A DNA stretch of 1,382 nucleotides from Patescibacteria group bacterium (GTDB lineage Bacteria > Patescibacteriota > Patescibacteriia > Magasanikbacterales > GWA2-37-8). The stretch spans positions 1-1,382 of the forward strand of contig SCQK01000025.1 in NCBI GenBank assembly GCA_004321885.1, given 5' to 3'. Positions 1-1,382 of this stretch are shown in pieces (positions within the stretch are counted from its first letter, which is position 1; the number at the start of each line of letters is the position of its first letter). Below the pieces are notes generated by a model. That model searched no databases. It was not told where the DNA came from and was given only the letters and a program-made list of their open reading frames with translations. The translations under genes were made by a program, and so were the position numbers.

Positions 1-25
1 GAGGTCTTGTCAAGAGGTGTGCAAA
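1..25. repeat. Terminal inverted repeat at the transposase-distal end (IRR relative to transposase orientation). It contains an outward-facing TTGACA on the minus strand.
   Basis: Bases 1-25 match the reverse complement of 1358-1382 at 20 of 25 positions. The five mismatches are at aligned positions 4, 6, 8, 9 and 14. Possible weaker extension to about position 31. Confidence 0.7.
8..13 (-). promoter_or_regulatory. Outward-facing consensus -35 hexamer (TTGACA) inside the terminal repeat, 7 bp from the element tip. It is a candidate half of a junction or hybrid promoter.
   Basis: Plus strand 8-13 is tgtcaa, so the minus strand reads TTGACA. It is followed on the minus strand by agacctc and then the element end. 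It is a sequence motif only, with no expression data. Confidence 0.4.
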
Positions 26-31
26 AAGAAG

Positions 32-1276
32 TCAGGCGGCCACCCTCCACTCCTGCTCCATGACACGGACGCCATCGACGAATGCGGCGCCGTGATAGAC
101 CTCTGTCAACAGCTCCGAGGCGTGCAGTCGCTGGAAGCGTTGCTGGGCGACCAGCAACATCTTCCAAATGACCGCCGTGGCGTTGTCGACCTTCTTGAAC
201 CGCCTCGCCGCATCGGTCCGCAGCCGCAAGGCGGCAAAGGGCGACTCAATCGGATTACTGGTACGCAGATGCACCCAGTGTTCCCTGGGAAACGAGTAGA
301 AGGTCAGCATCCGGTCCCAGTCTCGATCGAGCACGGCAGCGGCCGCCTCCAGCCCCTGCTGCCGGCACCAGCGCTGATAGCCCGCCTTCCGCTGCTCCGC
401 GTCTTGCTGTGTCGGGGCATACGGGATCTCGGTCAGCAGGCGCCGGGCCTCGGCTTGGCGCGTCTTCGGCACCTTGTCGAGGGCATTGAGAATCTTATGG
501 TTCCAGCACCGCTGCTCCTGGGCGTCGGGGTAGACGTTGCGCAGGCCCGCCCAGATCCCCAGGTGTCCATCGCCCACGACCAGCTTCGGCGTCGTCAGCC
601 CGCGCGCCTTCAGGTCCCGCAGGACGTCCGACCAGCTCTCGGTCGATTCCCGATGTCCGGGGACGACGGCCACGAGTTCCTTGCGCCCGTCACGCAAGGC
701 GGCCAAGACGACCAGGACCGCCGCCTTCTCTTTCTCGAGTCCGGCCTTGACATAGACCCCGTCCACCCAGAGGTAGACGACCTGGAGGTCGGCCAGAGGG
801 CGGCTCGCCCACTGCGCGTACTCCGCGTGCCACCGCTCCTTCAGGCGCGCGACGGTCGTGGTCGACAGCGGGGCGTCGTCCCCCAGCAGCCCACGCAGGG
901 CCAGATCGAAGTCGCCCAGCGCGAGGCCGTGGAGGTAGAGCTCAGGGAGCAGGGCACTGACCTCCGGTGTGCGCCGTGCGAACAGCGGCATCAGGCGACT
1001 GGCGAAGCGCTGCGCCAGGCCGCGGACGCGAGGCCGTCGGAGCGTGACCGTGCCATTACTCAGCGTCAACCGCCGTGGCTTGCCGTATCCGCTGCGGTAG
1101 CCGGGCGCACTATCGACGGCCGGTCTCCGCTCAGACTTCCGGCGGCCCAGCAGGTCGTCCACTTCGGCGTCCAGCAGCTCTTGCAGCCACTTCCGCATCT
1201 TGTTCCGGACCCAGGCTTCCAGGTGCTCCCATGTTACCCTTGACTCGGCGGTCGGTTCTGTGGTCTGCTTCTTCAT
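32..1276 (-). CDS. IS256-family (Mutator-like) DDE transposase, 414 aa
   Basis: The ORF runs from an ATG (complement of 1274-1276) to a TGA (complement of 32-34). Third-position GC is very high, consistent with genuine coding in a GC-rich genome. Recognisable IS256-family blocks are YLWVDGVYVK (D172, codon 761-763), LVVGDGHLG (D236, codon 569-571), the CWNH CxxH motif (residues 257-260) immediately after the second D, and TSNPIESPFAALRLRTD (E344, codon 245-247). The D-64-D-108-E spacing closely matches the IS256 triad spacing (D167/D233/E341). A strong Shine-Dalgarno sequence lies upstream. Confidence 0.93.
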   Translation of the reverse strand: MKKQTTEPTAESRVTWEHLEAWVRNKMRKWLQELLDAEVDDLLGRRKSERRPAVDSAPGYRSGYGKPRRLTLSNGTVTLRRPRVRGLAQRFASRLMPLFARRTPEVSALLPELYLHGLALGDFDLALRGLLGDDAPLSTTTVARLKERWHAEYAQWASRPLADLQVVYLWVDGVYVKAGLEKEKAAVLVVLAALRDGRKELVAVVPGHRESTESWSDVLRDLKARGLTTPKLVVGDGHLGIWAGLRNVYPDAQEQRCWNHKILNALDKVPKTRQAEARRLLTEIPYAPTQQDAEQRKAGYQRWCRQQGLEAAAAVLDRDWDRMLTFYSFPREHWVHLRTSNPIESPFAALRLRTDAARRFKKVDNATAVIWKMLLVAQQRFQRLHASELLTEVYHGAAFVDGVRVMEQEWRVAA

Positions 1277-1284
1277 GGCGGTGT

Positions 1285-1290
1285 CCTCCT
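1285..1290 (-). promoter_or_regulatory. Shine-Dalgarno ribosome-binding site for the transposase
   Basis: The minus strand reads GAGAGGAGGACACCGCC-ATG. AGGAGG (complement of cctcct at 1285-1290) lies 8 nt upstream of the ATG at 1276. Confidence 0.7.
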
Positions 1291-1357
1291 CTCGTTGACC
1301 GGGTGTCTGCCCGGTGGGTTAGAATGTCACCCGAGAGGGTACACCGCCTTTCTCCTA

Positions 1358-1382
1358 TTTGCACACCTTTTGAATATAGCTC
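1358..1382. repeat. Terminal inverted repeat at the transposase-proximal end (IRL relative to transposase orientation). It contains an inward-facing TATATT on the minus strand.
   Basis: The reverse complement of 1358-1382 (gagctatattcaaaaggtgtgcaaa) pairs with 1-25. The conserved inner core is GGTGTGCAAA. Confidence 0.7.
1373..1378 (-). promoter_or_regulatory. Inward-facing -10-like hexamer (TATATT) inside the terminal repeat, 4 bp from the element tip and oriented toward the transposase start.
   Basis: Plus strand 1373-1378 is aatata, so the minus strand reads TATATT. It is preceded on the minus strand by gagc, which is the element terminus. No in-element -35 partner is present, so it needs an upstream -35 supplied by flanking DNA or by the other end of the element. 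Confidence 0.4.

Follow-up and report, generated by a model that had tools for sequence, protein, structure and literature searches.

Does the transposase gene of this insertion sequence (IS) depend on a promoter whose two halves lie at opposite ends of the element and meet when those ends are joined? The question is raised by a 1,382-nucleotide stretch of DNA (assembly GCA_004321885.1, contig SCQK01000025.1, positions 1 to 1,382; hereafter the window, meaning the whole stretch), which is labeled as coming from a Patescibacteria group bacterium. The window is exactly one IS256-family insertion sequence, tip to tip, and makes up the entire public contig, with nothing else on it. An outward-facing -35 hexamer is located in its right terminal repeat and an inward-facing -10 hexamer in its left. 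Judged as a design written in sequence, this split promoter is real, being conserved among relatives and fitting the geometry of the family, and we think it probable that the split hexamers constitute a functional junction promoter.

Putative promoter halves in the two terminal repeats

The features on which the argument turns are as follows.

1–39, no strand assigned: right terminal inverted repeat (IRR), on the side where the transposase gene has its 3' end; its tip is window position 1
8–13, minus strand: -35 hexamer TTGACA, facing outward, with 7 nt between it and the right tip (repeat positions 13 to 8; read directly)
32–1276, minus strand: IS256-family (Mutator-type DDE) transposase gene, 414 amino acids, identified through Pfam, NCBIfam, and alignment with ISCth4 TnpA; the stop codon lies within the right repeat
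1344–1382, no strand assigned: left terminal inverted repeat (IRL), upstream of the transposase gene; its tip is window position 1382
1373–1378, minus strand: -10 hexamer TATATT, facing inward, with 4 nt between it and the left tip (repeat positions 5–10; read directly)

In size and organization the element is as expected for the IS256 family, with 1,382 bp, a single 414-amino acid transposase open reading frame (ORF), and 39-bp imperfect terminal inverted repeats (77% identity between arms 1–39 and 1344–1382). TGTAAA, a subterminal motif of IS256-family inverted repeats (PMC7780238), has its counterpart in TGCAAA at repeat positions 20–25 of the window, and TGTAAA itself occurs there in the right ends of 51 of 63 relatives. 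Relatives that reside in longer contigs begin, in every lineage, with GAG(G/C)T and close with its complement. The target duplications of 8–9 bp typical of the family are seen around these relatives, the window itself having no flanking DNA: duplications of 8 bp were found at 39 sites as perfect copies and at six more with one mismatch (128 distinct sites). For example, GCTTCGGG flanks a relative in a Dehalococcoidia genome, AATTATTT and AAATCCCA flank elements 82% identical to the window, and copies in Methylomirabilis limnetica are bordered by the 8-bp direct repeats TCCTGCGT/TCCTGCAT. The shared tips and 8-bp duplications of relatives identify the contig ends as true element tips, and the 7-nt and 4-nt tip offsets of the hexamers are therefore real.

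Read on the transposase strand, the left end is GAGC-TATATT and the right end TTGACA-AGACCTC. Elements of the IS256 family move by a copy-out/paste-in route through a circle or head-to-tail dimer, in which the two ends abut around a few host bases. Abutted in this way, the ends of the window give TTGACA-(11+N)-TATATT, where N is the number of host bases retained, and a hexamer spacing of 16–18 bp requires N of 5–7. With a spacer of ~6 bp the junction would read TTGACA-17 bp-TATATT, aimed into the transposase gene, and integration would split the two halves apart again. Junction spacers measured for ISCth4 are 6–8 bp, with an integration optimum of 6 bp (PMC7780238), and the same paper gives spacers of 5, 6, 7, and 19 bp for IS256 circles. 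The arrangement had been proposed in a sequence-only reading of the window, and direct reading and the true tips bear it out; the proposed N of 5–7 agrees with the geometry and with these measured spacers. For the element itself we infer circle formation, a spacer of 5–7 bp, and a transcriptionally active junction.

The strength of the joined site was estimated with a position-weight scan that used approximate Escherichia coli consensus frequencies (maximum 17.1 bits), the uncultured hosts' own consensus being assumed. On this scale, which may not be that of the host, the junction site scores 15.5 bits and the best internal site 4.0. A consensus scan of the whole linear window on both strands yielded no sigma-70-like site and no antisense promoter, upholding the earlier view that the linear element holds no convincing sigma70 promoter; the best internal site is a weak candidate that we return to below. 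Neither -10-like hexamer is preceded by TGn, as in an extended -10, when read from the sequence. A split promoter of equal quality and geometry arose in 473 of 200,000 shuffles (0.24%) of the two 25-nt ends. The left and right repeats are mismatched at positions 4, 6, 8, 9, and 14. It had been claimed that four of these five mismatches fall within the hexamers (positions 5–10 on the left and 8–13 on the right), but position 4 lies outside both, and the true count of three in five is not significant alone (hypergeometric P = 0.23).

End-specific bases and family geometry

The ends of about 170 relatives were collected and reduced to 63 distinct repeat pairs (59–100% transposase identity). TTGAC(A/G) is present at the same tip offset in the right ends of 58 of the 63 (46 TTGACA and 12 TTGACG), while TAnnnT occupies the -10 position, at a fixed tip offset, in 59 left ends as against 2 right ends. 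Both ends share the consensus GAGGTnnnnTCAAnAGGTGTG(C/T)AAA, which a few end-specific bases convert into the hexamers: A6 yields TAnnnT on the left, and Y8 and G9 yield TTGAC(A/G) on the right. Position 6 is A in 61 left ends and C or T in 60 right ends. Position 8 is mostly A or C on the left and always T or C on the right; position 9 is nearly random on the left (0.11 bits) and G in 60 of the right ends. The mean junction score is 12.7 bits toward the transposase gene versus 2.7 on the opposite strand, with the forward score higher in 61 of the 63 pairs. When 66 elements were scanned, 61 scored highest at one geometry (N = 6, a 17-bp spacer, and tip offsets of 7 and 4 nt); the ends of the remaining five are damaged or divergent. 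The sequence-only reading had suggested comparing the termini of relatives for conservation of TTGACA and TATATT. The former holds as TTGAC(A/G) and the latter as TAnnnT, but the middle of the -10 drifts and TATATT itself is not fixed.

Several features of these ends weigh against a promoter as the explanation. T5, T10, and TCAA (positions 10–13) are conserved at both ends and are therefore probably transposase-recognition bases. Positions that are truly end-specific and also match the promoter consensus number only three (6, 8, and 9). Position 14 (window 14 and 1369) is end-specific as well, with A in 58 of the 63 left ends as against T or G in 57 of the right ends, and because it lies outside both hexamers, the asymmetry of the ends is not only about the promoter. 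The earlier proposal that the divergence between the ends is functional thus survives for positions 6, 8, and 9, with position 14 left outside its terms. The -10 middle of relatives drifts freely and is often C-rich (TACCCT, TACACT), a weak-promoter type, so promoter strength must vary between lineages; the best -10 hexamers belong to the lineage of the window (TATATT) and to the TACAAT lineages. Relatives at ~40% identity have TAnnGTCAA at both ends. Finally, a sigma-70-type consensus is assumed for hosts that are uncultured.

Alternatively, the promoter-like bases could be determinants of transposase recognition or cleavage. The ends would then differ because one acts as donor and the other as recipient when the first strand is transferred asymmetrically, and the likeness to -35 and -10 hexamers would be incidental. 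Besides TCAA, GAGGT (positions 1–5) is conserved at both ends, and together with the ~40%-identity relatives and the end-specific position 14 these fit such an explanation. For IS256, a sequence-specific cut at the left terminus is reported as the first step (Hennig and Ziebuhr 2010, as cited in PMC3942029). We nevertheless judge this explanation unlikely. The end-specific positions 6, 8, and 9 all fit the promoter consensus on the gene-reading strand, and in ISCth4 the transposase makes no base-specific contacts at the hexamers (PMC7780238).

The comparative geometry of the family also argues against a recognition role. In ISCth4 of Clostridium thermocellum, the -35 (TTTACA) is at bp 6–11 of the right repeat and the -10 (TAAAAT) at bp 8–13 of the left, and a promoter with a 5–6 bp spacer has been predicted (Kosek et al. 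2020, PMC7780238). In IS256 the -35 is at bp 1–6 of the right tip and the -10 at bp 12–17 of the left end (PMC7780238), and we verified these ends on plasmid pTZ27, where the right tip reads TTGACT and the left end GATAAAGTCCGTATAAT (TATAAT at bp 12–17). In ISRm5, 9 nt separate TTGACG from the right tip and 2 nt separate TAGTGT from the left, and an Aeromonas element with 36% identity has the same 7 + 4 arrangement as the window. The tip offsets are accordingly 0 + 11 (IS256), 5 + 7 (ISCth4), 9 + 2 (ISRm5), and 7 + 4 (the window clade), which sum to 11–12 in four lineages whose hexamer positions differ. Added to the usual junction spacer of 5–7 bp, this sum puts ~17 bp between the hexamers. 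A junction promoter predicts a constant offset sum with shifting hexamers, and a shared transposase-binding site does not. Since it is the offset sum and not the hexamer position that is conserved, the comparison provides evidence for selection on the junction promoter itself. The trait is not universal, and this too counts on the other side: ISAzo34 scores better on the reverse strand, and the ends of IS1414, ISXax1, and ISEf1 are ambiguous. Automatic detection of repeat tips failed for IS256 and ISAba26; IS256 was curated by hand and ISAba26 was dropped.

A further possibility is that the half-sites act separately in the integrated copy, TTGACA pairing with host -10 boxes to activate neighboring genes and TATATT making use of a fortuitous host -35. 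The outward -35 of IS256 is documented to form such hybrid promoters at llm and mecA (Maki and Murakami 1997 and Couto 2003, as cited in PMC9330008 and PMC7780238). Because the -10 is only 4 nt from the tip, any -35 serving it in an integrated copy must come from flanking DNA. The flanks of 128 distinct insertion sites, however, share no sequence able to supply a -35, selection on an IS for random activation of host genes would be indirect, and the conserved offset sum of 11–12 would go unexplained. Such separate action is compatible with a junction promoter and not a true alternative to it, and as an explanation of the conserved hexamers we find it very unlikely.

We also searched for natural junctions, which in close relatives would read ...TTGACANGACCTC-N-GAGSTATA.... 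The search pattern consisted of the right-end core, a gap of 18–46 nt, and the left-end core, with a degenerate version for viral contigs. A right-end/N/left-end junction was not found in metagenome, genome, or viral contigs (0 matches each in metagenome_contigs, genome_contigs, and viral_contigs) or in about 190 fetched loci. The loci fetched first held no head-to-tail element pair, and the flanks of eight loci fetched later showed no junction. The negative counts weakly against a junction promoter: circles are rare, and assemblies tend to be broken at repeats. One apparent tandem dimer, a 713-amino acid protein with two transposase matches (P0001), was rejected, as it proved to be one element with an in-frame internal duplication. 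As assembled, this relative, 64% identical to the window (L172:2407-4672), encodes residues 1–268 followed in frame by residues 1–414, the 713-amino acid ORF being contained within a single repeat pair, and is inserted in a gene for a MalT/LuxR-type regulator.

A helix over the Shine-Dalgarno sequence and a candidate resident promoter

The transposase gene matches Pfam PF00872 (Transposase_mut, E = 8.8e-54) and NCBIfam NF033543 (IS256 equivalog, 280.5 bits against a cut-off of 150), and its product aligns with ISCth4 TnpA (6xg8) at E = 1e-30 (HMMER, 110 bits over query residues 19–351). D172, D236, E344, and the C257/H260 pair are in register with the catalytic residues (D175, D241, and E348) and the CxxH pair (C262/H265) of ISCth4 (PMC7780238) and are invariant in 22 relatives. 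The region between the left tip and the start codon contains the following features.

1277–1293, minus strand: 3' arm of a helix in the 5' untranslated region (UTR), GAGAGGAGGACACCGCC, element positions 90–106; spans the Shine-Dalgarno sequence and all bases up to the AUG
1285–1293, minus strand: Shine-Dalgarno sequence GAGAGGAGG, 8 nt upstream of the ATG; a GGAGG-type motif is kept in relatives
1298–1315, minus strand: inner hairpin ACCGGGC...CCCGGU, in the loop between the arms (predicted from the fold)
1333–1348, minus strand: 5' arm of the UTR helix (anti-Shine-Dalgarno), GGCGGUGUACCCUCUC, element positions 35–50 (from fold and covariation)
1336–1341, minus strand: candidate -10 TACCCT, in the 5' arm of the helix, element positions 42–47; predicted start at about position 54, past the arm; best internal site, 4.0 bits
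1359–1364, minus strand: candidate -35 GTGCAA (3 of 6 matches), in the conserved repeat core GTGTGCAAA, 17 nt from TACCCT

RNA that begins upstream of element position 35, whether from the junction or by read-through, is predicted to be able to fold into a helix that buries the Shine-Dalgarno sequence. For RNA from the predicted junction start (about element position 17), the minimum free energy is -43.6 kcal/mol (z = -4.5). In this fold, GGCGGUGU (positions 35–42) pairs with ACACCGCC, the latter stopping a single base short of the AUG, and CCCUCUC (positions 44–50) pairs with the Shine-Dalgarno GAGAGG(A)G. RNAalifold on a MAFFT alignment gave no structure, as the variable loop was misaligned, and explicit pair counting and per-sequence folds were used instead. 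In the 38 relatives aligned, pairing holds in 84.7% of cells, versus 43–61% with slid partners; 8 of 15 pairs are changed on both sides, there are 41 compensatory cells, and none of 500 shuffles matches the observed covariation. When the 94 distinct relatives were folded one by one, every minimum-energy structure had at least 60% of the Shine-Dalgarno window paired to an arm lying well upstream, and an Acinetobacter element at 41% identity has a similar helix (GGCGTATC...GATACGCC-ATG). An Rfam search of the window matched no family.

The helix complicates a simple account of the junction promoter and is a point against it, as the predicted junction transcript includes this occluding structure. 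Junction-promoter and read-through transcripts should both be translationally damped because both carry the helix. The junction promoter would then probably raise the level of mRNA while translation stayed damped. The claim that transposase expression is switched on only in the circle is consequently not established, given this helix and the weak internal promoter candidate. An elaboration that we consider improbable is a two-key switch, in which the circle would give abundant but masked mRNA and transposase would be made only from a short transcript of a weak promoter lying within the 5' arm of the helix or after unmasking (by processing, a host factor, or temperature), the junction promoter serving a role other than a simple burst of transposase. 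If so, it might titrate a regulator or mark the circle.

The internal site bears on a different explanation, that transposase comes mainly from a weak resident promoter whose transcript starts past the 5' arm of the helix, that RNAs started upstream are masked, and that the junction promoter adds little or nothing. The strength of the helix, its covariation, and its presence in every relative folded all suit this idea, as does the behavior of RNA from position 54: without the 5' arm it folds weakly and leaves the Shine-Dalgarno sequence mostly open. TAnnnT is present within the 5' arm in 88 of 94 relatives, with a predicted start 2–9 nt beyond the arm, and A43 is invariant in alignment A2 though bulged (unpaired) in the window fold. 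There is also precedent in IS200, the transposase of which is repressed at translation by structures that sequester the Shine-Dalgarno sequence (PMC4513863). On the other side, the -35 is poor, matching at 3–4 of 6 positions, and in relatives the distance between it and the -10-like hexamer varies over 14–18 nt; the CCT of TAnCCT is in any case required for pairing with the Shine-Dalgarno sequence; and the site, at only 4 bits, is absent from the consensus scan output. The conserved split hexamers and their geometry would, moreover, be left unexplained. We regard a dominant resident promoter as doubtful. As far as sequence goes, the internal promoter of the window is a weak candidate with a conserved -10-like TAnCCT, which could provide a short translatable transcript from the integrated copy. 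By analogy, it may fit the design of IS10 and IS50, in which only the resident transcript escapes masking; we offer this as a rival and not as a finding. A functional junction promoter, with a helix downstream of its predicted start, remains the explanation that we favor.

Two other ORFs were considered. A 408-amino acid ORF lies antisense to nearly the whole transposase gene (window 17–1243, plus strand); it has no Pfam match, was rejected as a real gene, and is probably a by-product of high G+C. A GTG-initiated ORF in the UTR (window 1131–1364) was rejected because it is not conserved in relatives, as judged by eye.

Copies in other genomes and comparison with known systems

The protein cluster at 100% identity is labeled "IS256 family transposase [Patescibacteria group bacterium]", and an exact-protein lookup of the window protein in the contig index returned no record. 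The contig has 65.6% G+C, and the closest relatives of the element (83–89% identity) are in NC10/Methylomirabilis genomes. The assignment to a Patescibacteria host is doubtful because a repeat-only contig this short is easily mis-binned.

A single long-read Dehalococcoidia genome (CAXXWW01) has more than 40 copies of a relative with 64% identity, and related Dehalococcoidia have dozens more (L096–L171), which indicates a large expansion. Matching 8-bp duplications are missing around many of the Dehalococcoidia copies, as if copies had recombined with one another. In one copy (L139:308-330), unrelated sequence stands in place of the outermost 9 nt at the left tip; the left end of this copy is damaged, and it is probably immobile. 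Contigs from sister samples (L186–L190) fuse the left flank of the AATTATTT site to the right flank of the AAATCCCA site, and these flank swaps are either assembly chimeras or the products of recombination across element copies. A 64%-identical copy also occurs on plasmid pMESIL01 of the cultured Allomeiothermus silvanus DSM 9946 (L173, NC_014213.1:125889-127151), with the same geometry, the hexamers TTGACG and TACCAT, and the duplication CAGCTACG. This strain offers a practical experimental model.

A split promoter is a familiar trait of the IS256 family, having been described in IS256 and ISCth4, and junction promoters have been demonstrated in IS911, IS2, and IS30; the hexamer placement seen here is new. 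A review names IS256 among the families with junction promoters (PMC9330008), and the precedents invoked in the sequence-only reading stand, in that junction promoters are known from families including IS911, IS2, and IS30, and circles from IS256 (PMC9330008, PMC7780238). ISCth4 and the window element are alike in transposase family, in 8-bp duplications, and in the layout of the half-sites, the right repeat holding an outward -35 and the left an inward -10. A spacer of ~6 bp gives a 17-bp promoter in both, and the hexamers lie within the variable first 14 bp of the repeats. They differ in the positions of the hexamers (bp 6–11 and 8–13 in ISCth4; 8–13 and 5–10 in the window) and in their sequences (TTTACA and TAAAAT as compared with TTGACA and TATATT), the two proteins are distant, and no helix occluding the Shine-Dalgarno sequence has been described for ISCth4. 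The window element adds a third hexamer placement within the IS256 family.

IS256 of Staphylococcus and Enterococcus likewise belongs to the same family (23% identity), has a split promoter with an offset sum of 11, and follows the same copy-out/paste-in pathway with circles that have short spacers. Its -35 is exactly at the tip, unlike that of the window, which is 7 nt inside. IS256 is also under antisense RNA control (PMC10266640), whereas the consensus scan of the window found no antisense promoter. Junction promoters of this kind explain how a copy-out/paste-in IS keeps transposase low while integrated and raises it once a circle exists; the outward -35 elements of such IS also switch on neighboring host genes.

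Junction spacers in IS911, IS2, and IS30 are shorter than those of IS256-family elements. The Pjunc promoters of these three elements are similarly composed of a -35 from the right repeat and a -10 from the left, joined only on the circle or dimer junction and undone by integration (PMC9330008, PMC7780238). They differ from the window element in that their transposases belong to unrelated families (IS3 and IS30) and their promoter activity is measured, where that of the window is predicted.

For the helix, the closest likeness is to IS200, where translation is limited by pairing between the ribosome-binding site and a segment further upstream in the transposase mRNA (PMC4513863). IS200, like IS10 and IS50, is not known to use a junction promoter, and a start between the arms is only a weak prediction in the window. 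IS10 and IS50 inhibit transposase translation by fold-back. Their resident start lies between the two arms of the fold-back structure. Set against these systems, the only mildly unexpected part of the window element is that a predicted junction promoter and a masking helix occur together, and a helix downstream of the predicted junction start amounts to a small, testable complication of the standard junction-promoter model.

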